Made by a program: the position numbers and the translations under genes
Shown: positions 10,943 through 44,702 of the stretch, in pieces
How positions within the stretch are numbered: position 1 is the first letter of the stretch
How the letters are laid out: every line of letters begins with the position of its first letter
Notes under the pieces: generated by a model
Databases searched by the model: none
Seen by the model: the letters and a program-made list of their open reading frames with translations, nothing else
Told to the model about the DNA's origin: nothing
Source: an uncultured Acidobacteriota bacterium
GTDB lineage: Bacteria; Acidobacteriota; Thermoanaerobaculia; Thermoanaerobaculales; Sulfomarinibacteraceae
DNA: 64,000 nt
Direction: 5' to 3'
Assembly (NCBI GenBank): GCA_963814875.1
Contig: CAWFFJ010000019.1
Location: forward strand, 67,482-131,481

Positions 10943-11949
10943 GGCCGCCCCGCGGCGAGCCGCGTGAGCAGCCGGCCGATAGCCTCCGGCTCGAGCTCGA
11001 GCAGCGCAGCCTCACGCTCCAGTGCGGCCCGCGGCATGCCGAAGACCGCACAGCTGTGTCGGTCCTGGGCCACGGTGAGCACGCCGGCTCGCCGCAGCTC
11101 CAGCATGCCTGTCACCCCGTCGTCGCCCATCCCGGTCAGGAGCACGGCCGCGACGTTGCCGGCCCCCAGCTCGAGGAACGACGAGAAGAGGAGATTGGCC
11201 GACGGTCGATGACCCCGGACCGGCGGCGTCAACGTGTCGTGGCGCAGCCTACCGTTCCGATCGATCACGAGGTGCGCTCCGGGCCGAGCCAGCCGAACCC
11301 GTGCCGAGGAGAGCGTCTCGCCGTCCTTGGCGACGCGGACATCGAGCCCGGTCTCGCGCGCCAGCCACTCTGCGAGCCCGGCCTCGAAGCCCGCAGCGAT
11401 GTGTTGGACGACCGCTACCGCGAGGGAAGTCCCCTTGAGCGCAGCGAGCATCGCGCGCAGCGCGACCGGACCGCCGGTGGAGGCGCCCACCGCGACGAAG
11501 CGTAGCCCGGCGGTCGCCGGCAGGCCCGACGTCTTCGGCCTCACGGCATCGCTGTCGGCGTCGGAGCGGGCGATCTGACGAACGACCTCTGCCAGGGACC
11601 GCCCGAGCTCCTGCCACTCGTCCGGCGTTTCCGGCTTGGCGAACACACCCAGTGCACCTCGGGTCAGGGTCTCGAATGCCAGGCGGGCGAAACGTCTCCG
11701 CCGCGGCGCGAGCACCAGGATGGGAGTCGGCCGTCTCCGAGTGATGGCCTCGGCGACAGCGACACCCCCGTCGGCGAGATCGGCGTCGAGAACCACCACG
11801 TCTGGCCGCAGCCTGGCGACCGCCCCCGCAGCCTCGGCAGGATCGCCGACGTCGCCCACCACGTCGACGCCCTCACCGGCGATCAGACGTCGCAGCAGGC
11901 TGCGGACCGTCGGCGACGCGCTGACCACGACAGCCCGGACCTCGCTCAT
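10939..11949 (-). CDS. cheB: protein-glutamate methylesterase CheB (receiver domain appears degenerate)
   Basis: The esterase triad contexts are present: AVGASTGGP, VVQHIAAGF and LTGMGDDG. The N-terminal receiver keeps LDADL and FAKP but has VVVSASP where the acidic DD pair normally sits. There is a 4-nt overlap with cheA. Confidence 0.9.
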   Translation of the reverse strand: MSEVRAVVVSASPTVRSLLRRLIAGEGVDVVGDVGDPAEAAGAVARLRPDVVVLDADLADGGVAVAEAITRRRPTPILVLAPRRRRFARLAFETLTRGALGVFAKPETPDEWQELGRSLAEVVRQIARSDADSDAVRPKTSGLPATAGLRFVAVGASTGGPVALRAMLAALKGTSLAVAVVQHIAAGFEAGLAEWLARETGLDVRVAKDGETLSSARVRLARPGAHLVIDRNGRLRHDTLTPPVRGHRPSANLLFSSFLELGAGNVAAVLLTGMGDDGVTGMLELRRAGVLTVAQDRHSCAVFGMPRAALEREAALLELEPEAIGRLLTRLAAGRP

Positions 11950-13937
11950 CGTGCCCCCAACCGGGCAACAACCGCGAGCAGCTCACGGGCCTCGAGGCCC
12001 TGCTTCGCCAGGTAGGCATCGGCACCTGCTGCGAGGCCCGCGCGGTGGTCCTCGGGGCGATTCCGGGTCGACACCACCACAACCGGCAGTTGGGCCAGCG
12101 CCGGGTTTGCACGGAGTGCTCGCGTGAGCTCGAGCCCGTTCATGTCGGGCATCTCGATGTCGGTGACTACACAGTCGAAGCCGCCGTCCTCGAGTGCACG
12201 CAGCGCTTCCTCCGCACTCCCGAACGAAGTCACCTCGAAGCCGCCGTCTTCGAGCACCCGGCGCAGCATCTCGCGGGTCACGCGCGAGTCATCCACCAAG
12301 AGCACTCGCACGGGTCCGGGCGCCTGCTGCGCCGCGACAACCTCGGAGCGCACGCCGGTACGGCTCGCGAGATCGTGGACCGAAACCACCGGCACCGGTC
12401 TCCCGGAAGCGAGCAGCGCCATGTCCGTAAAACAGGCGGGCGCTCCCAGGCCAGGCGGTAGCGGTCTCAGCACGACCTCCTCCTCGCCGACGACGGCGTC
12501 GACCGCGAGCGCTATCCGGACGCCGCCGAAGGAGACCTCCACGTGCACCTCGTCCCGCCCGCGCAACCCGGCCAAGAGCTCCCCCAGCGAGCGCACAGCT
12601 GGGGCCCCGCGGGCGGGCTCCGCAGGCGTCGCCGATCCCTTCGCGACGTGCCGGTAGGCGACAACGCCGGCCGCAGGTAGACCAACCTGAAACCCCGCCG
12701 CTGACACCACGAGGAGGCGGTCGGCGTGGCGGGTCACAGGCAACAGAAGGGTCACCTGGGTGCCGCGACCGGGCTCGGAGGCAAGCAGGACATCTCCTCC
12801 AACGTTGCGCACGGCCTCGGCGACGGCATCGAGGCCGACTCCACGCCCGGACACCGCCCCGGCGGCCTCTCGGGTCGTGAAGCCGGGGCGAAAGAGCAGC
12901 CGCAACGCGTCGTCGGGTCCGAGCGCGGCAAGCTCTTCGTCGCTCACCAGCCCGCGCGCCCGCGCCGCGTCGACGACGAGCTTCGGATCGATCCCGCGGC
13001 CGTCATCCTCGATCTCGAGCCGGACCCGCTCGCCTGCGCCGCCGGCAGTGAGACGCAGCCTGCCGGTAGCCGGCTTTCCGGCCGCGGTCCTTTCGTCGGC
13101 GGGCTCGATACCGTGATCGACCGCGTTCCGGACAAGGTGGAGCACCATTTCCTCGATCGCGGTGAGGACCCGCCGGTCGAGCTGTCCGCTGTCGGCGCTG
13201 ATCACGACCTCCACCTCTTTTCCCAGGGAGTGCGCGAGGTCGCGCGCGTGGCGTCCGACGGCAATGAGGAAAGGCTTGAGCGGCTGCAACTGGAGCCCGA
13301 TCAGAGCGTTGAGCTGACGGTCGACAAGCCGGCTCAGGCGACGCTCGCCGCCCTCGAGCTCAAACGCCGCCCGGCGCAGCAACGAGGCGAGCGTGGCGAG
13401 TACTTGCTCGGGGGACTCATCCGCCATGCCCCTCTCTGCAAGCCGTGAGAGCTCGAAGATCCGGTCCTTCACCCCACCCGCTGCCACCGCCAGGACCCGC
13501 ATCCTGGACGCCCGGTCGGCGAGCCGGTCGAGTACCGCCGCGCCCACCCGCATCTGCGTCTGATCCGATGGGGTACGGGATCCCTTGCGTAGCGCGGGCG
13601 GCGCTGCGTCGGTCGTTGCACTGCCGAGCTCGGGGACGGCGGCCTGCCGCCGTTGCGCCAAAAGCCCGGCCAGACCGTCGATCACTGCGACCAGGGAGAC
13701 GACCACCTCCGAGCCGCCCTTCTCGACCAGCGTCTCCGCATCGTGGCAGAGATCTGACATCTCGACCAGGCCCATCATCCGGCTCGCCCCTTTGAGGGCA
13801 TGAAGCTCGCGCTTAACGACCGCAGCCGCCTCGTCGTCCTCCGTGACCCGCGACGCGAGCTCGGCCAGGTGCTCGAGCCGGTCCTCCGCCTCGTCGAGAA
13901 AGAGCGGAATCAGATCGTCGAAGTCGCCTGCCTGCAT
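11946..13937 (-). CDS. cheA: hybrid CheA histidine kinase with C-terminal receiver domain
   Basis: An HPt motif (ELHALKGASRMMGL) is followed by HATPase motifs (HLVRNAVDHGIE, EDDGRGID, GRGVGLDAV) and a CheW-like P5 domain. A canonical REC follows (VLLVDDSRV...VVTDIEMPDMNG...VVVSTR...YLAKQ). Confidence 0.92.
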   Translation of the reverse strand: MQAGDFDDLIPLFLDEAEDRLEHLAELASRVTEDDEAAAVVKRELHALKGASRMMGLVEMSDLCHDAETLVEKGGSEVVVSLVAVIDGLAGLLAQRRQAAVPELGSATTDAAPPALRKGSRTPSDQTQMRVGAAVLDRLADRASRMRVLAVAAGGVKDRIFELSRLAERGMADESPEQVLATLASLLRRAAFELEGGERRLSRLVDRQLNALIGLQLQPLKPFLIAVGRHARDLAHSLGKEVEVVISADSGQLDRRVLTAIEEMVLHLVRNAVDHGIEPADERTAAGKPATGRLRLTAGGAGERVRLEIEDDGRGIDPKLVVDAARARGLVSDEELAALGPDDALRLLFRPGFTTREAAGAVSGRGVGLDAVAEAVRNVGGDVLLASEPGRGTQVTLLLPVTRHADRLLVVSAAGFQVGLPAAGVVAYRHVAKGSATPAEPARGAPAVRSLGELLAGLRGRDEVHVEVSFGGVRIALAVDAVVGEEEVVLRPLPPGLGAPACFTDMALLASGRPVPVVSVHDLASRTGVRSEVVAAQQAPGPVRVLLVDDSRVTREMLRRVLEDGGFEVTSFGSAEEALRALEDGGFDCVVTDIEMPDMNGLELTRALRANPALAQLPVVVVSTRNRPEDHRAGLAAGADAYLAKQGLEARELLAVVARLGAR

Positions 13938-13957
13938 GTCCCGCCGCCGCGCCGAGG

Positions 13958-15592
13958 TCAGATCCGGGTCCAGTTGCGGGCGTTGACGTCGAGACCGAGG
14001 ACACCAATCATCGAACCGTCATCGTCGCGAACACCCGCCGCGATGGTAAAGCAGGGATCGCCGGTCAGCAGCGACTCATAGAGCGGCGTCACCGCCGTTC
14101 GACCGGTCCGCATCACGGCCTGGAACCAGGGCCGCTCGGCATAGAGCTGCCCGACCATGACCGAGCCCGGCATCCGGTCCTCGCCGATGACGTCCCGGTT
14201 GGCGACATAGGCAACCATGCCGCCGCGGGTGTCGACAAGGTAGATCAGCTCCAGGTACGGGAGCGCCCGGAGGCCGTCCTCGAGACTGCCCTCGACCGCC
14301 TCGAGGTTGCCCGAGAAGTCCGCGAGTCCCTCGGCGAGGAGCAGGGCCTGGTGCTTCAGGGAGTGCACCGACTCGAGTCGGAATGACTGGCTGAGCAGCT
14401 GAATCGACAGCGCCAGGTGATTGAGGCGCTCGGCCGCACCGCTGAACTGGTTGAGGCCGCTGGCCATGCGCTGGATGACCTCGCTGACCTCGCGCAACGT
14501 CATCACCACCTGATCCGAGGCCGTGCGTTGCTCCTCGGTGGCGAGCGAGATTTCGCGCGCGGTACGTGCAGTCGTCTCGAGGGCGCTCCGCAGCTCTTCG
14601 ATCGCTGAATCGGCGGCGCGACTGCGCTCGAGCACCTCAGTGGCCGCCTTGCTGCCCTCCTCGGTCGCGACGACCATCGAACGGATGGCACTGGAGAACT
14701 CGTCGAGCAGCACCCGGACCGAGTCGACCGACTCGCGCGAGCGCTCGGCGAGGCGTCGCACCTCGGCCGCAACGACCCCGAACCGGTCGCCGTGGCTCCC
14801 CACCGCGGTCGCCTCGATAGCGGCGTTGAGGGCCAGCACGTGGGTCTCCTGTGCGATGTCGGTGATCAGGTCGAGCACTCGGTAGATTTCGCGCGACCGA
14901 CTCCCGAGAGTGTCGGCGCGAGTCGCGATCGCCTCCATGCGAAGACGCACCGCCTCGACCCCGTCCACCGCACCGCCGACCGCCTCTGCTCCGGCGTTGC
15001 CCTCACGCTCGGCATGTGCCGCAAGGTCGGCCTGGGCGGAGGCATTGGCGGCAATCTGCCCGGCGGTCCGGGCCAGCTCCTCCATGGTGGCGGTGATCTC
15101 GACTACCGCCGCCGCCTGCTGAGACGAACCCGAGGCGAGCTCGGCCGAGGTCTCCTGGACGACCTGGGCGGAGCTTGCGACCTCGACCGAGGACGCCTGG
15201 ATCTGCTGGATCAGGCCGCCCAGGGACCGAGCCGCGACCTCGACCGCCGAAGCGAGCTCGGCGGCGAGGTCTTCGGAGCGCTCCGCCATCGCCACCAGGT
15301 CGCCCTGACGCAGCTCGGCGAACGACGCCCGCAGCGCGGTGCTCTCACCGGCATGGCGCTCACGGTCCGCCTCGGCCTGCTGCTCCGCGCGGAGCTGCGG
15401 GCGCAGCACGAACATGATGTACACCGCAATAGCCAGTGCAGCAGAGGCAAGGAATGTCTGGACCAGCCACGCCCCACCATCGTCCAGGGTTTGCGCGGCG
15501 ACGACAACCACGGCCGCGATCACTAGCGCCGCCACCAGAACTGCGAAGCCCAGCAACGCTCGCGTCCTCGCCTGACTCGATTCACCCGCCAT
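13958..15592 (-). CDS. methyl-accepting chemotaxis protein with C-terminal Cache/PAS-like domain
   Basis: ORF 13958..15856 trimmed to ATG 15592, which is preceded by GGAGG. Two N-terminal TM helices are separated by an ~8-aa loop. The MCP hairpin-tip motif is present (ETHVLALNAAIEATAVGSHGDRFGVVAAEVRRLAERS). The C-terminal ~110 aa (LIYLVDTRGGMVAY...ERPWFQAVMRTG...MIGVLGLDVN) looks Cache-like. Confidence 0.85.
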   Translation of the reverse strand: MAGESSQARTRALLGFAVLVAALVIAAVVVVAAQTLDDGGAWLVQTFLASAALAIAVYIMFVLRPQLRAEQQAEADRERHAGESTALRASFAELRQGDLVAMAERSEDLAAELASAVEVAARSLGGLIQQIQASSVEVASSAQVVQETSAELASGSSQQAAAVVEITATMEELARTAGQIAANASAQADLAAHAEREGNAGAEAVGGAVDGVEAVRLRMEAIATRADTLGSRSREIYRVLDLITDIAQETHVLALNAAIEATAVGSHGDRFGVVAAEVRRLAERSRESVDSVRVLLDEFSSAIRSMVVATEEGSKAATEVLERSRAADSAIEELRSALETTARTAREISLATEEQRTASDQVVMTLREVSEVIQRMASGLNQFSGAAERLNHLALSIQLLSQSFRLESVHSLKHQALLLAEGLADFSGNLEAVEGSLEDGLRALPYLELIYLVDTRGGMVAYVANRDVIGEDRMPGSVMVGQLYAERPWFQAVMRTGRTAVTPLYESLLTGDPCFTIAAGVRDDDGSMIGVLGLDVNARNWTRI

Positions 15593-15641
15593 CACTCGTC
15601 CTCCACTCCCGCCTCCGCCCCGTCTCCTGGGGCGCCGCGAG

Positions 15642-16067
15642 TCAGCCCTCTCGTCGAAGCTCCATCGGGTCGAAAAGCCGAAGCTCTTCGCCCTCGACCC
15701 ACACCCGGCCGGCGGCTGCGGACTGTTCGCCCGGCACTGTCGCCTTGACCTCGATCGCCTCGTCCACCGCGAGGCCGAGCAGCTGCTCGCCGGCCTCACC
15801 GGCGATCCCAACGACGACCGCGAGCCGGTTCGGAGCGACCGTTCTCTCCGCCGCACCGATCAGCACACCGAGGTCCATCACCGGGAGCGGCTCGCCGCCG
15901 AGCTGCGCGAGCCCGGCGAACCGGGGCTCGGCGCCTGGCAGGGGAAACACCTGCAGGTCGCGGACAATCCTGCGGAGGCTCGCCACCGGCAGCGCGAGAC
16001 GACAACCACCGGCCCGTACCACCAGAACGTGGTGCGGCAGGACCTTCGGACCCGAGTCAGGACACAT
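15642..16067 (-). CDS. cheW: CheW-like coupling protein
   Basis: A single CheW-like domain (HHVLVVRAGGCRLALPVASLRRIV...FAGLAQLGGEPLPVMDLGVLIG...). The start is ambiguous between ATG 16067 and GTG 16100. Confidence 0.8.
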   Translation of the reverse strand: MCPDSGPKVLPHHVLVVRAGGCRLALPVASLRRIVRDLQVFPLPGAEPRFAGLAQLGGEPLPVMDLGVLIGAAERTVAPNRLAVVVGIAGEAGEQLLGLAVDEAIEVKATVPGEQSAAAGRVWVEGEELRLFDPMELRREG

Positions 16068-17803: not shown

Positions 17804-17938
17804 CGCATCGGCCCGCTCCGACGGTGTACGCTGCGCGACGTAGCCGCGCCGAGTCGAACTGTCATTTGGGTTCATGAACAAGAAAACATGTACATATTCA
17901 ATGGCTGCAAGAAGAGCGTCAGCGGTCTAGAATGCGCC

Positions 17939-18640
17939 ATGGTCGTGCACCGGAGTCGCGAGCCTCGGAGTGATGCCGGCGCGTGCCCGCCGAGCCGCTG
18001 GGTGGCACTGACCTTCTCCGTACTACTCCTCTTCGCCGGCACGGCGATTGCCGGCAGCGGCGGTCAGATCCTGTTCACGCCGCCGGGGAACCAGGTCCGC
18101 GCGCACGAGGTCGTCGAGCTGCGCTGGACGCCGCTTGGCGACGATGTCGACGAGCTCGAGGTGCTGCTCTCCCTCGACGGGACCTGGGAGCAGCCGCTCC
18201 GGCTGACCGGGCAGCTCGACCCCCACGCGCTGTCCTTCGAGTGGAGAGTCCCTAACCTGCCGACCGGCACCGCCAGGATCCGCATCCGGTTCGGCGGGTC
18301 CAGCGGCGAAGAGCTCGCGCCGGCGAGCGCGCCGTTCACGATTGTCGGCACCGGGTCCCGACCCGCCGCGGGGCTCTCGTGGCACCGCGCGGAATGGTGG
18401 GTCGTCGAACCGGGTGCCGCCAGCCGTTCGCGGACGAGCCGTCGGCAACCTGACGTGACCGAGGCCGCCAACCGAACCGAAACACTCGCTGCCGGGCTCG
18501 CTCCCAAGACCCCGGACGCCGGTTCGTCCGGTTCCGCAGGTCACTCCACCTCACCCTCGGGGCCCTCGGTCGCCTCGGGCAGCAGACGGGGCCTCGTCGC
18601 CCGAATCCGACAGCCGCTGACGTTCCCGATGCGGCCCTGA
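17939..18640 (+). CDS. secreted hypothetical protein with Ig-like beta domain and Ser/Gly/Pro-rich tail
   Basis: ORF 17888..18640. ATG 17939 (MVVHRS...) is preferred because a TAGAAT hexamer lies 5 nt upstream. A hydrophobic signal is present (WVALTFSVLLLFAGTAIAG). An Ig-like segment follows (VVELRWTPLGDDVDELEVLLSLDG...ARIRIRFG). Confidence 0.45.
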   Translation: MVVHRSREPRSDAGACPPSRWVALTFSVLLLFAGTAIAGSGGQILFTPPGNQVRAHEVVELRWTPLGDDVDELEVLLSLDGTWEQPLRLTGQLDPHALSFEWRVPNLPTGTARIRIRFGGSSGEELAPASAPFTIVGTGSRPAAGLSWHRAEWWVVEPGAASRSRTSRRQPDVTEAANRTETLAAGLAPKTPDAGSSGSAGHSTSPSGPSVASGSRRGLVARIRQPLTFPMRP

Positions 18641-18808: not shown

Positions 18809-20911
18809 ATGCGACTCTCGTTACCCATTCGACTGCTCGCCGCCGTGGCGTGCACGATTCTGATCATCACCATGGGCCTGCCCGCTCTCGCGGCCGAGCC
18901 GACAGCGACCCCGACGGCGACACCGACCCCGACGCCGCCGCATGTCGGGAGCGGCGAGCTGCTGGTGACGGCACCCCGGCTCGAGGTCTCCCTTGCCGAG
19001 AACCCCGCAGCGACCACCGTGATCGGCGAGGAGACCCTGTCGGTGCTGCCGCGCGCCATCGCCGCCGAGGAGGCGCTGGCTCTCGTCCCCGGTGTCAAGG
19101 TCGACAATCAGGCCAACGGCGAGCGCGTCCACATGTCGATCCGCGGTCAGGGCATCCTGACCGAACGTGGCATCCGCGGCATCAAGATCCTGCTCGACGG
19201 GCTGCCGCTCAACGACCCGACTGGGTTCGCTCCCGATCTCTTCGACGTCGACTGGGCCACGGTCGACCGCATCGAGGTGCTGCGCGGACCCGCCTCGGCT
19301 CTGTACGGCGGAGGCGCCAACGGTGGCATCATTGCGATCCAGACCCGTGACGGCGTCGACGCCCGGGTCGGCGGCGAGGGCCTCGCGACCTTCGGCTCGA
19401 ACGGGTTCTGGAAGGTCCTCGGCGAGGCCAGCGGCAGCGGCGACGGCAACGACTGGCGGGTAAGCGCCTCGCGCACCGCGGGAGATGGGTACCGCGTCCA
19501 CACCGCCTTCGCCGCAACCAATCTGTACGGCAAGTTCCACGTCCTCTCGAGCGACGCCTTCTCGCTGACGGTGATCACCGCCGGTACCAAGTTCTTCAAC
19601 GAGAACGCTGAAGGCCTCAACATCGACCAGGTCCACGAGGACCCGACCCAACCCAACCCCGATGCCGAGGTCTTCAACGAGTACCAGCGCACCCAGCGCG
19701 GCACCCTCGGCCTCGTCGGCCACGTCGCCCTCACTGCCGACCAGGAGCTGACCTTCGCGGCCTGGTATCGCCAGACCCTGTGGCGCGAGTCGGTCCCATC
19801 GTCGGTCCAGCACCGCACCTACGGCACGCCGGGCGCGTACCTCCAGTACACGCTTCACACACCGATCGGCGGGCTCGACAACCACTTCAGCCTCGGCACC
19901 GACCTCGACTGGCAGACGATCGACGAGACCAAGCGCCCGAACCTCGGCGGGGCGGTCGAAGGCTCTGAGATACTCTCCGACCAGCTCATTCACCAGAAGG
20001 GCACCGCCTGCTACCTGCTCGACCGGCTCGAGCTCGCCGAGGGCTGGAGCCTGACCTTCGGCGCCCGCCACGACAGCATCGACAACCAGCTCCAAGACCA
20101 GCTGGTCACCGACGGCGTCGACCTGTCCGGCAGCGCCGACTTCAGCAAAACGACGGCGAGGGTCGGCGTGGCGTGGAGCGTGAGGGAGGACCTCGGCGTC
20201 TACGCCAGCTGGGGTCAGGGCTTCCTGCCGCCGGCGACCGAGGAGCTGGCCAACAACCCCGTGCAGCAGGGCGGCTTCAACCAGGGGCTCGTGCCGGCGA
20301 CCTCGGACGGCTTCGAGATCGGGGTCCGCGGGGCCGCGTCCCACACACTGTGGTACGACGTCACGGCCTTCCAGCTCTCGACGGACAACGACTTCGGCCG
20401 CTACCGGACGCCCGATCGGCCGCTCGAGACCTTCTACCGCAATGCCGGCTCGAGCAGCCGCTGGGGTCTGGAGAGCTCCCTCGTGTGGATGCCCTTCGAC
20501 GCCCTGGTCGTCCGCCTCTCCTACACCTACTCAGACTTCACCTACGACCGCGTCGAGGTCGGGACCGACGTCTACCACGACACCAAGCTGCCCAACTCTC
20601 CCGAGCACATGACGGCCCTTGACCTCGCCTACACGCTGCTGCCCAGGTTGACCCTCGGCACCACCGTCAGCACCATGACCCGTGCCTACATCGACGCCAC
20701 CAACGCGACCTGGATCGGCGGCTACACCCTGGTCGATGCACGGCTTGGTTGGGGTTTTGCGATGTCAAGCTGCACCGGCGAGCTGCTGGTGTCGGCACGC
20801 AACCTGACCGACAAGGCGTACATTGCGTTTACCGAACCCGACCCCGACGGCAACTCCTACCAACCTGGCACCAGCCGAGAGCTCTTCGCCGGCGTTTCGC
20901 TGCATTTCTAG
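18809..20911 (+). CDS. TonB-dependent outer-membrane receptor
   Basis: A signal peptide is followed by a plug domain (LLVTAPRLE..., VPGVKVDNQANGERVHMSIRGQG, RIEVLRGPASALYGGGANGGII). A long beta-barrel ends in the typical aromatic terminus ...ELFAGVSLHF. An SD GGAGG lies upstream. Confidence 0.92.
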   Translation: MRLSLPIRLLAAVACTILIITMGLPALAAEPTATPTATPTPTPPHVGSGELLVTAPRLEVSLAENPAATTVIGEETLSVLPRAIAAEEALALVPGVKVDNQANGERVHMSIRGQGILTERGIRGIKILLDGLPLNDPTGFAPDLFDVDWATVDRIEVLRGPASALYGGGANGGIIAIQTRDGVDARVGGEGLATFGSNGFWKVLGEASGSGDGNDWRVSASRTAGDGYRVHTAFAATNLYGKFHVLSSDAFSLTVITAGTKFFNENAEGLNIDQVHEDPTQPNPDAEVFNEYQRTQRGTLGLVGHVALTADQELTFAAWYRQTLWRESVPSSVQHRTYGTPGAYLQYTLHTPIGGLDNHFSLGTDLDWQTIDETKRPNLGGAVEGSEILSDQLIHQKGTACYLLDRLELAEGWSLTFGARHDSIDNQLQDQLVTDGVDLSGSADFSKTTARVGVAWSVREDLGVYASWGQGFLPPATEELANNPVQQGGFNQGLVPATSDGFEIGVRGAASHTLWYDVTAFQLSTDNDFGRYRTPDRPLETFYRNAGSSSRWGLESSLVWMPFDALVVRLSYTYSDFTYDRVEVGTDVYHDTKLPNSPEHMTALDLAYTLLPRLTLGTTVSTMTRAYIDATNATWIGGYTLVDARLGWGFAMSSCTGELLVSARNLTDKAYIAFTEPDPDGNSYQPGTSRELFAGVSLHF

Positions 20912-20931
20912 ACCACGGTGTTTCCCTCCAG

Positions 20932-20959
20932 ACCGGGGCGACCAAACGGTCGCCCCGGT
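20932..20959 (+). terminator. GC-rich hairpin after the TonB-dependent receptor
   Basis: accggggcgacc-aaac-ggtcgccccggt is a perfect 12-bp stem with a 4-nt loop, 21 nt after the stop. No U-tract follows. Confidence 0.5.
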
Positions 20960-21084
20960 CGACTCGGGAAGGTCCCTGCGGTCACACATCCTGATTCAGA
21001 ATCTCACCTTTATTGCCAGCCCTCTGTAACTGTCTCGACTTGCGGCGTACCATCACTTTGTACTGATACGGCTCAGCCGAGCCG

Positions 21085-23991
21085 ATGGAGGCCAGCATGC
21101 TACTCGGTCGCCGCACCCTGACCCACGTCCTGCGCCGTGTTCCGGTCGTGCTCATGGCCACCCTTGCCGCCGCCTCACCCGCGTCCGCCGGCTGGCGCGT
21201 CATTGCCTGGAACGACCTCGGCATGCATTGCATGGACTCGAGCTACGCGGTCTTCTCCATTCTGCCGCCGTACAACAACCTCCACGCCCAGATCGTCGAC
21301 GCGTCGGGGCGGTTGGTGACGTCTCCAGGGACCCTCAGCGTGACCTGGGAGGCGGTCGCGGACGCGAGCGGCTCGCGCAACACGACCTCTGTCGGCAAGA
21401 CCGACTTCTGGAGCTTCGTCGCCGCCCTTTACGGAGCCGACCTCGCCCCTGATCATGGGCTCGCCGGCTCGGCCATGCCCGGCACCGGCAACACACCGCA
21501 GCCGATGTCGTTCGATGTGGGTGCGCACCAGTTCGTCGCATCTGGCATCCCGATCACCGCGTACGACGACAGTGGGCGGAAAAACGCCTATCCGATGGTG
21601 CGGGTCGTGGTCCGCGACGGATCCGGGGCCATCCTGGCATCGACCGATGTCGTGCTGCCGATCTCGGATGAGATGGACTGCCGGGCGTGCCACGGCTCCG
21701 GAAGCTCAGCGGCGGCCCAGCCTGCTGCCGGGTGGGTGACCGACCCCGATCCCGACCGCGACTATCGGCTCAACATCCTTCGTCTGCACGACGATCTCGA
21801 GGGATGGCGGCCCCGATTCGCCTCCGCCCTCACCGAGGCCGGCTACTCCGCCGACGGGCTGTATGCGACTGTCACCGCGCAGGGAACGCCGGTGCTGTGC
21901 GCCCGATGTCATGGCTCCAACGCCCTGCCCGGCACCGGGCTCGCCGACATCCCACCCCTCACCCACTCCGTGCACGGCAAGCACGCGCAGGTCGAGGATC
22001 CGGTCAATGGGCTGACCCTCGACGCCAGCAGCAACCGCTCGGCGTGCTACCGCTGCCACCCTGGCAGCGAGACGCGGTGTCTGCGCGGTGCGATGGGCTC
22101 CGCGGTCGCCGCCGACGGCAGCCTCGCAATCCAGTGCCAGAGCTGTCACGGCTCGATGAGCGCGGTGGGCGGCAACCGCGAAGGCTGGCTCGACGAGCCC
22201 GGGTGCGGAGGCTGCCACACGGGCACTGCCACCGCCAACAGCGGCCAGATCCGCTACACCTCGGCGCTCCTTGCCGACGGCTCTCGACGACAGCCCGCTG
22301 ATTCCACCTTCGCAACCAACCCCGACACGCCGAGCGCCGGCTTCTCGCTCTACCGGTTTTCCGACGGCCACGGCGGGCTCGCCTGCGAGGCATGCCACGG
22401 CTCCACCCATGCCGAGTACCCCAGCCTCGACGCCAACGACAACGCCCAGAGCCTCGCCGTCCAGGGCCATGTCGGATCCATCGGCGACTGCACCGCCTGC
22501 CACGCCTCGTCGCCGTCGACCACCTCCGGCGGTCCGCACGGCATGCACCCGGTCGGACAGGACTGGGTGAGCAGGCACGGCGACGCCGCCGAGCACTCGA
22601 GCTCGGCATGCCAGGTGTGCCACGGGGCGGACTCGCGCGGCACCGTGCTGTCTCGGGCCCTCGGACCGCGCAGCTTGTCGACGAAGTGGGGAAGCCGGAC
22701 CTTCTTCCGCGGCGCCACCATCGGCTGCTACACCTGCCACAATGGGCCATCGAGCGAGAGCGGCAACCCCAACCACCCTCCTACCGTGGCCAGTGCCTCG
22801 ATCTCGACCACTCACGACACGCCCGTGACCGTAACGCTCTCCGCCACCGACGCCGATGGCGACTCGCTCACGGTGCGGATCGTGACCCAGCCCCGGCACG
22901 GCACCGTCGCGCTGAGCGGCCGGTCCGCGACCTACCTCCCAGAGGCTGGGTTCGGCGGAACCGACAGCTTCACCTTCGCGGCCTGGGACGGCGCCTCGGA
23001 CTCCAACCTCGCAACCGTCTCCGTTTCCGTGTCGGCCGCGGCGCTCGCCGTCAGCGCGGCGGCGAGCCCGTCGAGCGGCCAGACGCCGCTCGAGGTACAC
23101 TTCAGCGCCACGGTCTCCGGGGGCACCGAGCCATACAGCTACGACTGGGACTTCGGAGACGGCAGCGCTCACGCCGTCACCTCGAACCCGACCCACACCT
23201 ACACCGCCGACGGGACCTTCCCGGTGAGCGTGTCAGTGCGGGACGCGGTCGACATCACAGCGAGCGACAGCCACCTGGCGGTCACGGTCGGCTCCACCGC
23301 GGTGTGGCGCTACCTGGTGCCCGCCGCGGCCCACAACACAGGGGTCGGCGGAACCCTGTGGCAGACCGACCTGGTGGCCGTGGTGCCGGGGTCGCAGTCG
23401 GCGAACCTCGAAATGGAGTTCCGCTTCCCGGGTGGGCAGCGGACCGCCGTCGAGGTCCTTGCCGCAGGCTCGACCGTGGTGTGGACCAACGCCGCCGAGA
23501 GCCTGTTCGGGCTCGCCCCCTCCGAGCCCGCCGCCGGCGTCATCGAGGTCACCTCCGACGCGCCCGTCGTGCTCAGCGCGCGGACCTTCAACTCGACCGC
23601 GACCGGGACCTTCGGGCAATCCATGCCGGTCCTCGACGAGGCCGCCGCGCTGCACGCCACCGAAGAGGGCGTGCTGCCGCACATCGTCGCCAACGCGAAG
23701 TTCCGGTCGAATCTCGGGCTGGTCAACCTTGGCAACGCCCCCTGCACGGCCACCGTCCGGCTGTTCGGTGGCTCGGGCACGCCGCTCGGACAGTCGATCT
23801 CCGAGACCGTGTCGGCTCGGGGTTGGACGCAGCTCAACAACATCGGCGATCTCGTGGGCGCGGGCCAGATCGAGATCGCCTACGCGACGGTGAGCGTCGA
23901 CACCCCTGGCGGTGCCATGTGGGCCTACGTCTCGCTGATCGACCAGGCCACCGGCGATCCCACCACGATCCCAGTCGTCCGCCGGCCCTGA
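21085..23991 (+). CDS. secreted nonaheme c-type cytochrome fused to cadherin-like Ig, PKD and an unassigned C-terminal domain
   Basis: It has a signal peptide (VPVVLMATLAAASPASAGW). There are nine CxxCH motifs: CRACH, CARCH, CYRCH, CQSCH, CGGCH, CEACH, CTACH, CQVCH and CYTCH. A cadherin-like repeat (VTVTLSATDADGDSLTVRIVTQPRHGTV...DSFTFAAWDG) and a PKD signature (PLEVHFSATVSGG...YDWDFGDGS...HTYTADGTFPVSVSV) follow. The last 232 aa are unassigned. Confidence 0.88.
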   Translation: MEASMLLGRRTLTHVLRRVPVVLMATLAAASPASAGWRVIAWNDLGMHCMDSSYAVFSILPPYNNLHAQIVDASGRLVTSPGTLSVTWEAVADASGSRNTTSVGKTDFWSFVAALYGADLAPDHGLAGSAMPGTGNTPQPMSFDVGAHQFVASGIPITAYDDSGRKNAYPMVRVVVRDGSGAILASTDVVLPISDEMDCRACHGSGSSAAAQPAAGWVTDPDPDRDYRLNILRLHDDLEGWRPRFASALTEAGYSADGLYATVTAQGTPVLCARCHGSNALPGTGLADIPPLTHSVHGKHAQVEDPVNGLTLDASSNRSACYRCHPGSETRCLRGAMGSAVAADGSLAIQCQSCHGSMSAVGGNREGWLDEPGCGGCHTGTATANSGQIRYTSALLADGSRRQPADSTFATNPDTPSAGFSLYRFSDGHGGLACEACHGSTHAEYPSLDANDNAQSLAVQGHVGSIGDCTACHASSPSTTSGGPHGMHPVGQDWVSRHGDAAEHSSSACQVCHGADSRGTVLSRALGPRSLSTKWGSRTFFRGATIGCYTCHNGPSSESGNPNHPPTVASASISTTHDTPVTVTLSATDADGDSLTVRIVTQPRHGTVALSGRSATYLPEAGFGGTDSFTFAAWDGASDSNLATVSVSVSAAALAVSAAASPSSGQTPLEVHFSATVSGGTEPYSYDWDFGDGSAHAVTSNPTHTYTADGTFPVSVSVRDAVDITASDSHLAVTVGSTAVWRYLVPAAAHNTGVGGTLWQTDLVAVVPGSQSANLEMEFRFPGGQRTAVEVLAAGSTVVWTNAAESLFGLAPSEPAAGVIEVTSDAPVVLSARTFNSTATGTFGQSMPVLDEAAALHATEEGVLPHIVANAKFRSNLGLVNLGNAPCTATVRLFGGSGTPLGQSISETVSARGWTQLNNIGDLVGAGQIEIAYATVSVDTPGGAMWAYVSLIDQATGDPTTIPVVRRP

Positions 23992-24012
23992 GCCCGGCTC
24001 TTTCGAGTCGAT

Positions 24013-24042
24013 CCCGCCCCGTCGGCCTGACGACGGGGCGGG
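24013..24042 (+). terminator. GC-rich hairpin after the multiheme cytochrome gene
   Basis: cccgccccgtcg-gcctga-cgacggggcggg is a perfect 12-bp stem, 21 nt after the stop. Confidence 0.5.
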
Positions 24043-24071
24043 GGTAGACTGCGAGCGTGGAGGACACCGCC

Positions 24072-25040
24072 ATGGCTCGACACCTCTGGCCGTCGTTCCT
24101 GCTCACTCTTGCCCTGATCCCGGCCGCGGCCTTCGCCGCGCCGCCGGACCCATCCACCTTCTCGATCGTCGCCGCTGACCCGGACGCCGGTGAGGTCGGC
24201 GTTGCTGTTGCGAGCCGTTTCTTTGCGGTCGGTACCGTCGTTCCCCACGCCCGCGCCGGCGCCGGAGCGGTCGCGACCCAGGCCTACGCCAACACGAGCT
24301 ACGGCCCGCGCGGGCTCGACCTGCTCGCCATGGGTCTGAACCCGACCGAGGTCGTCGAGATCCTCACCCGCAGCGACGACGGCGCCCAGCGCCGCCAGGT
24401 CGGTGTGGTCGACGCCTCCGGCCGCTCGGCGACGTTCACCGGACCGGGCTGCAATGCATGGGCCGGCGGACGGTCGGGCCCGGGTTATGCAGTGCAGGGC
24501 AACATCCTGGTCGGCGCACCGGTGGTCGCTGCGATGGAGACGTCGTTCCTGTCCAGCGCCGGAAAGCCCCTCGCCGAGCGGCTGCTCGCCGCCCTCTCGG
24601 CCGGTGACGCCGCCGGAGGCGACGCCCGAGGACACCAGTCAGCGGCGCTCATCGTGGCGCGCGCCGGGGGAGGCTACGGCGGCTTCTCCGACCGCGCGAT
24701 CGACATCCGGGTCGACGACAGCCAGGACCCCTTCGGCGAGCTGCGCCGCCTGCTCGGGATCGCGATGGTTAACGACGACTGGAACCGCGGCTGGACCGCA
24801 TTCACCGAGAAGCGCTTTCCGGACGCCCGCCGATGGCAGGAGCGCGCCGCCGAGCGCGCCGGCGCTCAGCCCGAGGTTCTGCCGGAGGTCCTCTACGACC
24901 TCGCGGTGATCCGTCTCGCCGATGGCGACCGCCCGGGTGCCGAGGCTGCACTTGCGAAGGCCGTGTCCCTCAACCCCAAGCTCGCCGAGCAGGCCAAGGT
25001 CGACGACGACCTCGCCGGCCTCCACCCCGAGGGAAAGTAG
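24072..25040 (+). CDS. secreted DUF1028-family (Ntn-hydrolase-fold) protein with C-terminal TPR-like extension
   Basis: ATG 24072 is preceded by GGAGGA. After the signal peptide the protein reads TFSIVAADPDAGEVGVAVASRFFAVGTVVPHARAGAGAVATQAYAN, the characteristic DUF1028 N-terminus. The C-terminal ~90 aa are helical and TPR-like. Confidence 0.8.
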   Translation: MARHLWPSFLLTLALIPAAAFAAPPDPSTFSIVAADPDAGEVGVAVASRFFAVGTVVPHARAGAGAVATQAYANTSYGPRGLDLLAMGLNPTEVVEILTRSDDGAQRRQVGVVDASGRSATFTGPGCNAWAGGRSGPGYAVQGNILVGAPVVAAMETSFLSSAGKPLAERLLAALSAGDAAGGDARGHQSAALIVARAGGGYGGFSDRAIDIRVDDSQDPFGELRRLLGIAMVNDDWNRGWTAFTEKRFPDARRWQERAAERAGAQPEVLPEVLYDLAVIRLADGDRPGAEAALAKAVSLNPKLAEQAKVDDDLAGLHPEGK

Positions 25041-25189: not shown

Positions 25190-26908
25190 TCAGATCCTGC
25201 GCGCGAGGGCCCGTCCGAGCATTCGCAGGCGGTCGCGGCCCGGGAATCGCCAGAAGTTCGTCTTGACAACGCCCTTGGTGAAATACGTCAAGTGCGAGTA
25301 GTCGATCGCGACTTCGACCACCGCCGCCTGACCGCCGCGGGTCAGGCCCAACGCAGCCTCGAGCACTCCGTCGACGTCGGCGTCGACCGCGATCGACAGG
25401 TAGCGGGCGCCAACCAATCGCGCGTAGTTCTCGACCCGATAGGGCGCGAGCACAGTGCAGGTCTTGCGGTTGAGCGGGATGCGCTGGAACTGGGCAATCT
25501 GTCCGAGCTCACCATCGCGCAGCACGAGGACGAGGGGAGCAATACCACGCGACGAGGCGGTGATCAGCTCGAGGCCGGTCATCAGCAACGCTCCGTCGCC
25601 CGCCAGCGCCACCACGTCCTTCTCCGGAGCGGCCAGCGCCGCACCAATTGCGGCGGGCACCGCGTAGCCCATGCACGAGAAGTCGATCGGACCGAGGAAG
25701 CAACCGGGGCCGTCGAGGCGGAGGTGCTCCATAGCGAGAAAGGTGCCGTTGCCGCTGTCGGTGGTGAACACAGCGCCTGGCCGGGCATGACGCGAAAGGC
25801 CGTCGAACAGGCACGCGGGTGTGACCCGGTCGCTGCTCCGCCGCTTCGTCCACTTCCGGCGCACGTCGTCCTGGCCCGCCGCAATCTCCTCGGCGAGATC
25901 GTCCCACGGACGACGGCCGCCGATCAGATCCAGCAGGCCGTTGAAGAACCGCCCTGCGTCGGACCGGATCGCGAGGGCCGCATGATAGTTGCGGTCGAAC
26001 ACCGAGGGGTCGACGTCAACGTGGATCAAGTTCGCCGGGGGCGTGACGCCGTAGCTTCCGGTGGCCACCTCGGCGAAGCGGCAGCCGACCGCGAGCAGGC
26101 AGTCCGAACGGTCCATGATGCGGCGGACAAAGGGCGGCGCCTGCGGCCCAAAACCGTTCCACAACCACAGTGGATGGCTCTCCGGGAAGACTCCCTTGCC
26201 GTGGATGGTCGTGGTGACGGGCGCGCCAAGGCGCTGCGCCAGCTCGACCAGCGCGGGTCCGGCACCAGCGGCGCCGACGCCGAGGTAGAGAGCCGGGCGC
26301 TCGGCCTCGCCGAGACGCTTTGCGGCGGCCTCCAGGAGCTCCTGCGACGGATCCACCGGCGGTTCCGGATCGGGTATCCAGTGCGGCACGTCGTCGAGCT
26401 TCTGCACGAGCAGCATCAGCTCGGCCGGGATCTCGACCGCGACCGGACCGCGCGGGCTGCGGCGGGCGAGCTGGAAGGCCCGGCGGATGGTCGGGTAGAT
26501 GTCCTCCGCCCGAGTCGCCCGCCATGCCGCCTTGGTCACCGGCTCGAGCACGGCGAGCTGGTCGATGGCGTGGAGCTGGAAGGACGCCCCGGTGTCGGAT
26601 CGGATGCCGGTCGCGAGGACCACCAGCGGCACCTGATCCATCCACGCCTCGGCGATGCCCGACAGAGCGTGGGTCACACCGGCACCGGGCACCACCGCGA
26701 GCACGCCGACCTCTCCGGTTGATCGCGCGAGGCCGTCGGCGAGGAACGCGGCCGCATGCTCGCTGGTCACGAGCACCGGCTCGATTGGCGAAAGATCAAG
26801 GGCGTCGTAGAGCTCGGTGTTGTGGGTACCCGGGATCCCGAAAGTCCAGCGGACGCCCTCAGCAAGGAGCGCCTGGACGACCGCCTGCGAGCCTCGGACC
26901 TTCTTCAT
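25190..26908 (-). CDS. thiamine-diphosphate-dependent enzyme (acetolactate-synthase-like family; substrate unknown)
   Basis: ORF 25190..27100 trimmed to ATG 26908, which is preceded by GGGGAG and overlaps the upstream stop as ATGA. The N-terminal Pyr domain reads MKKVRGSQAVVQALLAEGVRWTFGIPGTHNTELYDAL. The ThDP-binding motif is ALAGDGALLMTGLELITA. Confidence 0.85.
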   Translation of the reverse strand: MKKVRGSQAVVQALLAEGVRWTFGIPGTHNTELYDALDLSPIEPVLVTSEHAAAFLADGLARSTGEVGVLAVVPGAGVTHALSGIAEAWMDQVPLVVLATGIRSDTGASFQLHAIDQLAVLEPVTKAAWRATRAEDIYPTIRRAFQLARRSPRGPVAVEIPAELMLLVQKLDDVPHWIPDPEPPVDPSQELLEAAAKRLGEAERPALYLGVGAAGAGPALVELAQRLGAPVTTTIHGKGVFPESHPLWLWNGFGPQAPPFVRRIMDRSDCLLAVGCRFAEVATGSYGVTPPANLIHVDVDPSVFDRNYHAALAIRSDAGRFFNGLLDLIGGRRPWDDLAEEIAAGQDDVRRKWTKRRSSDRVTPACLFDGLSRHARPGAVFTTDSGNGTFLAMEHLRLDGPGCFLGPIDFSCMGYAVPAAIGAALAAPEKDVVALAGDGALLMTGLELITASSRGIAPLVLVLRDGELGQIAQFQRIPLNRKTCTVLAPYRVENYARLVGARYLSIAVDADVDGVLEAALGLTRGGQAAVVEVAIDYSHLTYFTKGVVKTNFWRFPGRDRLRMLGRALARRI

Positions 26909-28425
26909 GCGAGGAGCTCCCCGGCGCGGTCGCGGATCCGCTCGGCGACGCGATCCGCCAGCGCCATGATCGTGACGTAGGGGTTGATCTCGGAACAGTG
27001 TGGGAACAGCGAGGCATCGGCGACGTAGAGCCACGGCGTGCCGTGCACCTGGCCCCACGCGTCGGTGACCGAGTCCGCTACCCCGGAGCCCATTCGGCAC
27101 CCGCCCATCACGTGGGCGCTGGTGACGGACATTCGTCCCGGCACCACCCGCTCACGGGGGATCAGCTCGTCGACGCGGTCGGCCTGGGAGCGGTCGATGA
27201 AGAACCGTACCCCGGCCGGTGCATGGACCCGCCGGGCGCCGGCAGCGAAGAAGATCCGCGCCGACGCCCTCATCGATGCGTGCAGCGAGTCGAGCACCGG
27301 CTCGGTCAGGGTGTAATCGACCACCGGTTCGCCATCCCGGTCAATCGTGACTCGGTTCGACGGGATCGCCGGGTCGAGGGCGAGGACCAGGATCATCTGC
27401 AGGCGCGGAAAGGCGTGCATCAGTTGGGAGTGCTCGGCACCGAACCCGATCAGGTTCTTCGCGGTCGTGAACGGGAAGTACATGCAGGTCTCGAGCAGGA
27501 AACGTCCGGACTCCAAGAACTCGTCGCTGTAGTAACTCTTGGGGTGGCCGTAGAAGTTGGTGATCTCGTGCTCGTGCTCGCCAACCAGGATCAGGGCCGG
27601 ATGGAGGGTAAGGTAGCGGCCAAGCGCAGGCAGGCGGTCGCCGAAGCCGGAGCGCAGCAGCAGCGCCGAGCCCTGCACCGCTCCGCCCGCCACGACGACG
27701 ACCTTCGCCCGAATCCGGTAGGCACCCGGCTCCCACGCCGACGGCTCGCCCCACCCCGGGTTCGCGACCGTCGCGCTGACCTCACCCTCGCCGATGCGCT
27801 CGACCCGGCAGTTGGTCACCACCTCCACGCCCGCGCGCTCGGCCGCGGGCAGCTGCACGCGGTGGGTTCCCTGTTTGGCGAGATTCGGGCAGCCGAGGTT
27901 GCACAGGCTCGAGCCGCGGCACCCCGAGACGTTGATCGGGAACTGCTGGACCCTGAAGCCGAGACGCCGGCAGCCGTCCCGGAACAGGCGGTTGTTGTCG
28001 TTGATCAGTTCGTCCTCCTCGAGGTGGACGTTGTTCTCCTCGAGGTACTTCTCCGACCTGGTCACGACATCGGCCCAGTCCAGACCGGGTACCGCCCAAC
28101 GTGCGACCACCCGCTCAGGCACGGTCAACGAGGTGCCGGTGTAGACCACCGTCGAGCCGCCGTAGGCGCGGCCCATGGCGAGGGTCATGGTACGGTCTCT
28201 GGTCAGAGTTCCACCGGAGTCGAAGAAGAGCTTCTCGGCCATCTCGACTTCGCGGCCGGTGTACTCCTCGGGCCGCAGCTTGGCGCCCCACTCGAGGACA
28301 GTCACCCGTTTACCTGCAGTCGCCAGGGGGGCGAGCTCCTTGGCGACCGCTCCGCCGCCGGCGCCCGAACCGATCACCAGGACGTCGGTCTCACGCTCCG
28401 CCACCGAGCCTCCCGCGAGCGTCAC
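26905..28425 (-). CDS. GMC-family FAD-dependent oxidoreductase
   Basis: FAD Rossmann motif TDVLVIGSGAGGGAVAKEL. GMC C-terminal features include HVMGGCRMG and LYVADASLFP. An alternative GTG start at 28404 follows GGGAGG. Confidence 0.9.
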   Translation of the reverse strand: MTLAGGSVAERETDVLVIGSGAGGGAVAKELAPLATAGKRVTVLEWGAKLRPEEYTGREVEMAEKLFFDSGGTLTRDRTMTLAMGRAYGGSTVVYTGTSLTVPERVVARWAVPGLDWADVVTRSEKYLEENNVHLEEDELINDNNRLFRDGCRRLGFRVQQFPINVSGCRGSSLCNLGCPNLAKQGTHRVQLPAAERAGVEVVTNCRVERIGEGEVSATVANPGWGEPSAWEPGAYRIRAKVVVVAGGAVQGSALLLRSGFGDRLPALGRYLTLHPALILVGEHEHEITNFYGHPKSYYSDEFLESGRFLLETCMYFPFTTAKNLIGFGAEHSQLMHAFPRLQMILVLALDPAIPSNRVTIDRDGEPVVDYTLTEPVLDSLHASMRASARIFFAAGARRVHAPAGVRFFIDRSQADRVDELIPRERVVPGRMSVTSAHVMGGCRMGSGVADSVTDAWGQVHGTPWLYVADASLFPHCSEINPYVTIMALADRVAERIRDRAGELLA

Positions 28426-34669: not shown

Positions 34670-35325
<656 letters not shown>

Positions 35326-35338
<13 letters not shown>

Positions 35339-38300: not shown

Positions 38301-38403
38301 CGCCACCCTCGCCGAGCTCAACATCAAGCCGCGCACCCACTACCTCGCGCGCCTGCGCAACCCGGCCGGCGGTGCCGGGCACCACGGGGAGGAGTCGGCG
38401 TGA
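35326..38403 (+). CDS. actB: Alternative Complex III subunit ActB (molybdopterin-oxidoreductase-like plus 4Fe-4S domain, fused B1-B2)
   Basis: ORF 35176..38403 trimmed to ATG 35326. It has a Tat signal ([21 protein letters not shown]). The C-terminal ferredoxin-like Cys clusters are [37 protein letters not shown] and CTYC.... Confidence 0.92.
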
Positions 38404-39890: not shown

Positions 39891-40465
39891 GCGACCAGAC
39901 CTCTGCGACCACGCGAGCCGAGAGCACTCCCACGACCTACGGCTACATCGTCGAGTTCGACGACATCGACCTATTCCTCAACTCCGTCGAGAAGGTCCGG
40001 GACGCCGGCTTCACGCGCTGGGACGCCCACACGCCCTTCGTGGTCCACGGCCTCGACGACGCAATGGGCATCAAGCCGACCATTCTGCCGTACCTGGTGT
40101 TCGGGGGCGGTCTCACGGGGACCCTCGCCGGCATCGGGCTCCAGTGGTGGACCAACGCCGTCGACTACCCGTTCCTGATCAGCGGCAAACCCTACTTCAG
40201 CCTGCCCGCCAACATTCCGATCGCCTTCGAGATGACGATCCTGTTCGCAGCGCTGACGAGCCTGATCGGTATGCTCGCGTTGAACGGGCTGCCCCAGCTG
40301 CACCACCCGCTGTTTACGAGCCGGCGCTTCAGGCGGGTGACCAACGACCGTTTCTTCATCTCGGTCGAGGCCGACGACCCGATGTTCAACGACCGTGCCA
40401 CCCCCGAATTTTTGGCCTCCCTCGGCGGGCTCGCCGTCGAGCGGGTTGACGAGGAGGCGGAATGA
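39887..40465 (+). CDS. actD: Alternative Complex III subunit ActD (DUF3341)
   Basis: [44 protein letters not shown] is followed by two TM helices. The position in the operon fits. It has a 4-nt overlap with actC. Confidence 0.85.
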
Positions 40466-41109: not shown

Positions 41110-41124
41110 GGGGGAAGGCAGACC

Positions 41125-42345: not shown

Positions 42346-42356
42346 CGGGAGGGACG

Positions 42357-44688: not shown

Positions 44689-44702
44689 CCGGGGGAGGAA
44701 GC

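Follow-up and report, generated by a model that had tools for sequence, protein, structure and literature searches.

A nine-heme cytochrome with Ig-like tail domains from an uncultured Acidobacteriota bacterium is an ordinary member of a widespread family of extracytoplasmic multiheme cytochromes

Extracellular electron transfer beyond Shewanella and Geobacter is poorly understood. The closest described systems are the outer-surface cytochromes of the OmcA/MtrC group (MtrC, MtrF, OmcA and UndA of Shewanella), which carry ten CxxCH motifs, the sites of covalent heme attachment (eleven in UndA), in the order beta-barrel domain I, pentaheme domain II, beta-barrel domain III and pentaheme domain IV. 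The hemes of MtrC are tightly packed with bis-His ligation, and a conserved redox-active disulfide in domain III gates flavin binding. These proteins have a lipoprotein signal and are encoded together with the decaheme MtrA and the porin MtrB. Here, we analysed a stretch of 64,000 nucleotides from an uncultured Acidobacteriota bacterium, hereafter the window, in which an open reading frame (ORF) at 21085..23991 on the + strand encodes a protein of 968 amino acids with nine CxxCH motifs. This gene is an ordinary member of a family that consists of a heme-free N-terminal domain (N-domain) followed by a nonaheme core, and that family is best seen as a separate and so far uncharacterised one among the extracytoplasmic multiheme cytochromes.

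OcwA from Thermincola potens has been described as a surface nonaheme terminal reductase in an organism without an Mtr-type conduit (PMC6703420 / bioRxiv 10.1101/641308; phylogeny PMC7829351). Only the heme count is shared with the window protein, and the OcwA chain in PDB was unmatched at E<=10 by sequence or family profile and absent among the top Foldseek matches. To our knowledge, OcwA has neither the N-domain of this family nor an Ig-like tail. Assignment to the OcwA-related 'nonaheme clade from Gram-negative bacteria' (PMC7829351) was considered and discarded, given that the sequence shows no similarity to OcwA. The published work that comes nearest, a 2026 preprint, reports porin-multiheme clusters named EET1-EET4 from peat Acidobacteriota and Verrucomicrobiota, with uncharacterised cytochromes of 8-13 hemes and a predicted extracellular location. 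Their defining trait is that they are syntenic with genes for outer-membrane porins and for periplasmic cytochromes (bioRxiv 10.64898/2026.05.27.727921). They occur in the same phyla and, like the present family, are largely unrelated to the characterised Shewanella and Geobacter cytochromes. As described, EET1-EET4 are syntenic systems, whereas the present family stands alone and has no conserved partner.

The window protein works most like the MtrC/OmcA outer-surface cytochromes and has one homologous pentaheme module in common with them. In each case an exported c-type cytochrome unites a heme-free beta-sheet domain and many tightly packed hemes, and hemes 4-8 of the window protein match the Pfam model of the MtrC/MtrF pentaheme domain II/IV (PF22113). 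The score is 44 bits (cutoff 30), and the match takes in model positions 8-167 of 176 and five CxxCH motifs. This match recurs in relatives. As a counterpart to the disulfide of MtrC, a functionally important cysteine pair is predicted (Cys49/Cys332), some relatives are, like MtrC, lipoproteins or lie beside genes of the type II secretion system (T2SS), and one relative (P0217) consists of the N-domain plus five hemes twice over, a layout that resembles the four-domain plan of MtrC. In contrast to OmcA/MtrC, the window protein has nine hemes, a single beta-sandwich and a single PF22113 match, no Cys before the mature N-terminus and no lipobox, and it adds a tail of Big_9, PKD and beta-sandwich domains. 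No pair corresponding to MtrA and MtrB is present at the window gene or at 85 of 86 loci. At E<=0.01 no cytochrome family model of NCBIfam, OmcA/MtrC included, matched the window protein, no MtrC-, OmcA-, MtrF- or UndA-family chain was found in PDB at E<=10, and the Foldseek comparison with MtrC (6qyc) gave a probability of 0.13, which is noise level.

The extent of the family became evident in a protein search that covered about 5.8 billion proteins and returned more than 4,700 matches to the window protein, the top 120 of which each exceeded 900 bits. The matches align over residues ~36-556, with 50-66% identity, and differ in their C-terminal parts. A scan of species-representative genomes gave at least 429 relatives. 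The lineages include Acidobacteriota, Planctomycetota (including Brocadiaceae), Verrucomicrobiota, Binatia, Thermaceae and others, as well as Beta- and Gammaproteobacteria (Thiobacillus, Rhodocyclaceae, Nitrotoga, Ideonella alba and Methylococcaceae) and Campylobacterota (Sulfurimonas, Sulfurovum and Sulfuricurvum), and core identity between phyla is 48-62%. Members were found in the cultured organisms Paludibaculum fermentans and I. alba, which would be open to genetic work, and in metagenome-assembled genomes (MAGs) of genera with cultured members (Prosthecobacter, Sulfurimonas and Sulfuricurvum). An exhaustive phmmer search with the core against 1.84 billion 50%-identity representatives returned 526 clusters with E<=1e-30, a number that rose to 1,272 with E<=1e-10; it is the 526 clusters at this level of identity, the unusually conserved core, the unique N-domain and the cultured carriers that make the family notable.

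Neither Pfam nor NCBIfam holds a model for the N-domain or for the core as a unit, and sequence searches of PDB with the whole protein, the core profile, the heme region and the N-domain matched PKD domains only. A literature search, in part poorly aimed, found no paper describing an N-domain plus nonaheme family. The original prediction that the domain combination does not belong to a described system thus agrees with Pfam, NCBIfam, PDB and the literature searched. Members are named by NCBI only as 'PKD domain-containing protein' or 'Ig-like domain-containing protein', and genome surveys of electron-transfer potential miss them because of these labels. Almost all multiheme cytochromes are uncharacterised in Acidobacteriota, Verrucomicrobiota and Planctomycetota, the phyla that predominate in soils, peat and sediments. 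Since such cytochromes are numerous in Acidobacteriota and Verrucomicrobiota, one further family is less surprising, and the window gene alone is a modest result.

The combination of domains had been singled out as the unit of interest. It is present, but the unit that is conserved is the N-domain with the nine-heme core, and the cadherin-like, PKD and C-terminal parts are one lineage-specific decoration of many. In the homolog alignment, conservation is dense from residue 42 to about residue 556 and then ends. Most proteobacterial and campylobacterial members are a bare core of about 560-590 residues. Tails of Big_9, PKD, Ig_3 and SLH domains are found in Acidobacteriota and in the Planctomycetota/Verrucomicrobiota group, and in other members the core is placed at the C-terminus behind heads of BACON_2, Big_7, Ig_3/I-set or Temptin_C domains. 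Mounting the core on Ig-like spacers is thus common throughout the family, and the cadherin-like and PKD domains of the window protein are a lineage-specific case of it. Some relatives combine the N-domain with other heme numbers, seven in P0250 and seventeen in P0256, which is divergent and has lost the GMHC motif. A lipobox pattern was absent from 186 of the 193 homologs with the N-terminal motif (seven more of the 200 are without this motif); four of the seven pattern matches look like real lipoproteins, with a Gly/Ser linker.

The nine CxxCH motifs of the window protein are at residues 199, 272, 321, 351, 374, 434, 469, 509 and 548, and the variant heme motifs CxxCK, CxxxCH and CxxxxCH were searched for and not found in it. 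Exactly nine motifs are present in 197 of 200 homologs and in all of 80 full-length representatives of 50% identity clusters, down to 33% identity, and none of the Cys and His residues of the motifs varies. Since both the count and the motif residues are kept across homologs, the nine sites are not due to chance, and the heme count of the original prediction is confirmed. Outside the motifs, the histidines H235, H297, H300, H429, H442, H485 and H488 are conserved in at least 97% of 81 sequences, and H498 is kept in 78. M337 is likewise kept in 78 of the 81, and its sole substitute is His, which is the behaviour that one would expect of an axial heme ligand. His462 is present in just 64 of the sequences and is replaced by Tyr in 13. 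The candidates for axial ligands thereby amount to eight His and Met337, nine in all and equal to the number of hemes. Probably all nine hemes are six-coordinate, eight as His/His and one as His/Met337, and the agreement between nine conserved ligand candidates and nine hemes speaks for an electron conduit rather than an open-site enzyme. As regards open or atypical heme coordination of the OcwA type, the ligand count would suggest nine six-coordinate hemes, as judged from sequence conservation.

The N-domain carries the motifs WNDLGMHC(M)D, LPPYN, SxxKTxFW and VLPxSDEM. The conspicuous N-terminal motif that had been pointed out in the window protein proved real, and in the form WNDLGMHCMD...ILPPYN it is nearly invariant in the family. 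Features that define the family and are conserved in homologs, namely the WNxLGMHC N-domain, nine CxxCH motifs with conserved spacing and CYxCHPGxxTxCLRGxM with the Cys pair, are all present in the window protein. Cys49 is located within WNDLGMHCMD, and Cys332 within CYRCHPGSETRCLRGAMG, after heme 3. These two lone cysteines co-vary perfectly, both being present in 74 sequences, neither in seven and a single one in none, and the seven sequences without them are spread over several sequence contexts. Direct contact is therefore predicted, and an inter-domain disulfide would be its simplest form, or else the two residues could bind one metal together. Five of the seven sequences without the Cys pair lack His48 too, which for this reason probably belongs to the local Cys site rather than to a heme. 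AlphaFold2, run with an alignment of 84 sequences, modelled residues 36-325 with confidence, as a beta-sandwich followed by helices (predicted local distance difference test, pLDDT, about 90). With this core model, Foldseek found weak Ig/p53-like sandwich matches for the N-domain in PDB.

We propose that this exported nine-heme cytochrome functions as an electron conduit of the envelope or surface, and we hold this to be about as probable as its negation. The pre-protein would be exported by Sec and its signal peptide cleaved, as the N-terminal sequence suggests, and nine hemes would be attached covalently at the CxxCH motifs, the invariance of which was observed. If all nine are six-coordinate, as ligand counting indicates, they would form an electron wire without an open heme site. 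The N-terminal beta-sandwich would pack on the first hemes and be pinned there by a Cys49-Cys332 disulfide, in line with the co-variation, and hemes 4-8 would make up an MtrC-type pentaheme module, to which the above-cutoff Pfam match points. The tail of Big_9, PKD and double beta-sandwich could act as a stalk or anchor that places the core in the envelope or at the surface, considering the nature of these domains and the occurrence of Ig-like parts across the family. The core would then trade electrons with an extracellular or envelope partner, which may be a mineral, humic matter or a polymer, a metal ion or a further protein of the cell surface. A location in the envelope or at the surface is plausible, and the surface-type parts found family-wide (tails with Big_9, PKD and SLH; heads with BACON_2, Big_7 and Ig_3/I-set) support display. 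The more general part of the original prediction, an extracytoplasmic multiheme redox protein with adhesin-type domains, is supported.

Several observations weigh against a conduit at the surface. The signal is of the plain Sec type without lipobox and no route across the outer membrane is visible in the window, which leaves the location to inference. No porin or periplasmic decaheme is conserved nearby, and a DmsE/MtrA-type decaheme is found within 6 kb in only one of 86 loci (L044). SLH tails would, in diderms, put the protein in the periplasm, and the bare core that is usual in Proteobacteria and Campylobacterota fits a soluble periplasmic protein. Between phyla the core is more alike than is usual for a protein that only conducts electrons, and this may point to a specific catalytic or docking function. 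The family is carried by aerobes (Prosthecobacter, Ideonella and Nitrotoga), and the host of the window gene has an Alternative Complex III (ACIII) and a caa3 oxidase. Finally, the region of hemes 4-9 was modelled by AlphaFold2 with low confidence, as expected without cofactors, and neither ligation nor the disulfide was seen in structure.

Much of this would suit a periplasmic inducible redox protein, that is, a soluble protein that serves as reductase, oxidase or electron shuttle for a soluble substrate or stressor (a metal or metalloid, a sulfur or nitrogen oxyanion, or peroxide) and has an Ig-like tail for docking or stability only, and we regard this as possible but doubtful. The identity between phyla would be as for a defined site, the core in Proteobacteria and Campylobacterota is mostly free of an anchor, aerobes are among the carriers, and His48 beside the Cys pair is highly conserved, surplus to the ligand count and could belong to a functional site. 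Dedicated regulators, of the OmpR type and the ArsR family, were moreover the sole recurrent neighbours of the family, both in ORF clustering and in a Pfam scan of 112 immediate neighbours. Response regulators of the OmpR type account for 12 of these 112, and in about 15 of 80 loci, mainly in Betaproteobacteria and Campylobacterota, such a regulator is directly adjacent and usually accompanied by a histidine kinase. An ArsR-family repressor that has LCxxVC as a conserved C-terminal motif is placed divergently upstream in four Bryobacterales/Solibacter loci (L043, L044, L045 and L048). However, no common signal for the kinases can be inferred because their sensor domains are heterogeneous. The ligand count shows no obviously open heme, and the catalytic multiheme families NrfA, HAO/ONR, Otr and MccA show no similarity to the protein in NCBIfam or PDB and no variant active-site motif was found. 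Stalks of Ig-like, BACON and PKD domains, lipoprotein variants and adjacency to T2SS genes argue for surface display in many lineages. The genes GspD/E/F/G lie no more than a few kb away in L050, L051 and L062, with gspG directly following the cytochrome gene in L051, and ORFs for GspE-type ATPases occur in L009.

A common Fe-sensing signal of the PmrB/BqsS-like ExxE/RExxE type was considered for the adjacent kinases and is not supported, their periplasmic loops being heterogeneous. In several Campylobacterota loci the order of genes is response regulator, cytochrome, an ORF of 330-350 residues, an ORF of 137 residues and histidine kinase. Neither of these two small ORFs (11589-13066 in L064 and 11595-13006 in L069 for the pair, both +) had a match in Pfam or NCBIfam.

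A conserved porin-cytochrome partner was likewise looked for and rejected, since all-vs-all clustering of ORFs, the Pfam scan of the 112 neighbours, a census of CxxCH motifs and tblastn with the MtrA-like protein of L044 yielded nothing recurrent. The family is thus a stand-alone gene that is often separately regulated. In L044 itself (937-3938, -) the gene for the DmsE/MtrA-family decaheme (TIGR03508, 267 bits) is next to an ORF of 685 residues that has no family match and may be a porin, and both are upstream of the family member at a distance of about 5.4 kb. Other cytochromes near family members are sporadic. In a Victivallales MAG (L015 4773-10739, +) two ORFs with nine CxxCH each are arranged in tandem, the second with weak, sub-threshold matches to cytochrome families in NCBIfam, and in I. 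alba (L065 410-4360, -) an ORF of 1,316 residues with 46 CxxCH is located 5.5 kb from the family member.

One may extend the conduit reading and speculate that the family is a major unrecognised class of stand-alone surface redox 'antenna', independent of the Mtr/Omc porin-cytochromes, found in hundreds of lineages of aerobes and anaerobes in at least eight phyla, switched on by dedicated metal- or redox-sensing regulators, exchanging electrons with minerals, humics or metal ions outside the cell, and gated in its activity by a redox-active Cys49-Cys332 pair beside His48. We consider this wider proposal rather unlikely as it stands.

The tail of the window protein is composed of typical adhesin modules. 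The cadherin-like and PKD domains of the original prediction were both recovered by Pfam above cutoff, as Big_9 (59.9 bits, cutoff 23.6), PKD_4 (50.5, cutoff 27) and PKD (46.7, cutoff 23.5), and Cadherin_5 matches the same span as Big_9. Residues 563-735 thereby have clear Pfam, NCBIfam and PDB matches to Ig modules of adhesins (tandem-95 Big_9; PKD domains of ColG/ColH, which are matched in PDB), but adhesin repeat arrays are long whereas Big_9 and PKD are here single copies on a redox core. The C-terminal 232 residues, for which no assignment had been offered, have no Pfam match either; in agreement with this, the Pfam scan of the window protein left both residues 1-198 and residues 737-968 without a match. 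The module was modelled as two tandem beta-sandwiches with a pLDDT of 96.7, and Foldseek returned weak partial matches to TM1070 and to sandwich domains of GH2 enzymes and vicilins. The module was seen in about 50 family members and in some unrelated secreted proteins; it forms the extreme C-terminus of nearly all of these carriers, and in P0021 and P0039 it is present twice. The unrelated carriers (P0121-P0127) have PKD or proprotein-convertase domains and come from Thermoanaerobaculales-like MAGs. The module probably serves anchoring or binding, and may represent a type of anchoring or sorting domain that has yet to be described.

This sharing of the module with secreted proteins that are not cytochromes, and weak Foldseek matches between the tail and RbmA, pilin and carbohydrate-binding sandwiches, are also what one would find if the protein were mainly an adhesin or matrix protein, its Ig-like, PKD and beta-sandwich domains serving attachment or biofilm formation and its heme core being an accessory for a conductive matrix or charge storage. 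We think this improbable, in that conservation is wholly in the heme core, ending near residue 556, and many family members are without any adhesin domain.

The ORF has a G+C content at third codon positions (GC3) of 0.88, which is the coding-type signature of this window of 68% GC. Public gene callers start the protein at Met5 and give 964 residues (P0001/P0132). ORF, motif scan and Pfam agree on the architecture of 968 residues that had been proposed, in the order signal peptide, heme-free beta-sandwich, nine CxxCH, Big_9/cadherin-like domain, PKD domain and double beta-sandwich of 232 residues (Table 1); the cleavage site of the signal peptide was read by eye from the sequence. Two perfect 12-bp hairpins had been described on either side of the gene. 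Both are real and stable, but the stem of the first is 13 bp. With short flanks, the upstream hairpin (20921-20975) folds with -38.6 kcal/mol (z -5.9) and the downstream one (24003-24060) with -39.6 kcal/mol (z -4.6), and in neither case did any of 200 shuffles equal it. A T-tract was looked for and is absent from both. The upstream hairpin is likely a terminator or insulator, and the cytochrome gene is stand-alone and probably monocistronic.

Table 1. Positions of the cytochrome gene's parts and of other features in the window
Feature	Coordinates	Strand	Remarks
TonB-dependent receptor	18809-20911		Co-oriented with cytochrome gene; best, below-cutoff matches PqqU and siderophore receptors
Upstream hairpin	20931..20960	+	Perfect GC-rich stem of 13 bp, loop of 4 nt; just past the receptor stop codon
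Signal peptide, Sec-type (residues 1-35, ...ASPASA|GW)	21085..21189	+	No lipobox; start possibly Met5 (21097)
Heme-free N-domain (residues 36-198)	21190..21678	+	Predicted beta-sandwich (pLDDT about 90); family-defining; no Pfam or PDB match
Nine-heme region (residues 199-556)	21679..22752	+	CxxCH positions and conserved axial-ligand candidates; contains Cys332
MtrC/MtrF-type pentaheme module, hemes 4-8 (residues 350-517)	22132..22635	+	PF22113, 44 bits
Big_9/cadherin-like Ig domain (residues 563-649)	22771..23031	+	Pfam
PKD domain (residues 657-735)	23053..23289	+	Pfam, PDB matches
C-terminal 232-residue module, two tandem beta-sandwiches	23293..23988	+	Predicted structure; no family assignment
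Downstream hairpin	24013..24042	+	Perfect stem of 12 bp, loop of 6 nt; 22 nt past the stop codon
DUF1028+TPR protein	24057-25040		Other side of cytochrome gene; family matches
Pentaheme ActA-like (5 CxxCH)	34670-35338	+	ACIII-like operon
Fused molybdopterin/4Fe-4S ActB-like	35176-38403	+	ACIII-like operon
NrfD-type ActC-like	38400-39890	+	ACIII-like operon
Monoheme ORF	40450-41109	+	ACIII-like operon
caa3-type CoxII with cytochrome c domain	43693-44688	+	After the ACIII-like genes
CoxI	44358-46406	+	caa3-type oxidase

The TonB-dependent receptor and the DUF1028 protein are neighbours of the cytochrome gene as originally predicted, and the 'Ig-like' label given to the product of 17888-18640 could not be confirmed, there being no family match. 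No cytochrome or porin was found beside the window gene. The functional link that had been suggested, in which the cytochrome would act with the receptor (and the DUF1028 protein) in redox-assisted uptake, for example by reducing ferric chelates or minerals, did not withstand a check of neighbourhood conservation, and we consider it very improbable. The two genes are adjacent and co-oriented, the receptor resembles PqqU and siderophore receptors at a sub-threshold level, and the synteny is kept in a near-identical contig of the same species (L085), which is the only place where it is kept. However, a strong hairpin separates the receptor and cytochrome genes, and tblastn with all window neighbours against 80 related loci, +/-10 kb, gave no match. 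The four homologs of the same architecture that were examined (53-58% identity) are in unrelated contexts without receptor, DUF1028, cytochrome or porin, and no family of TonB-dependent receptors recurs among the 112 immediate neighbours. The striking neighbourhood of the window gene is thus not meaningful.

Downstream of the DUF1028 gene, on the - strand (25190-28425), the window contains genes for a thiamine-pyrophosphate enzyme (25190-27100) and a GMC oxidoreductase (26905-28425), which are also present in L085. An ACIII-like operon occupies 34670-46406 (+), and together with the caa3-type oxidase (Table 1) it indicates that the host is an aerobic or facultative respirer. A chemotaxis cluster at 10939-15856 (-) encodes a CheB methylesterase (10939-11949), a CheA-like hybrid kinase (11946-13937) and a dCache methyl-accepting chemotaxis protein (13958-15856).

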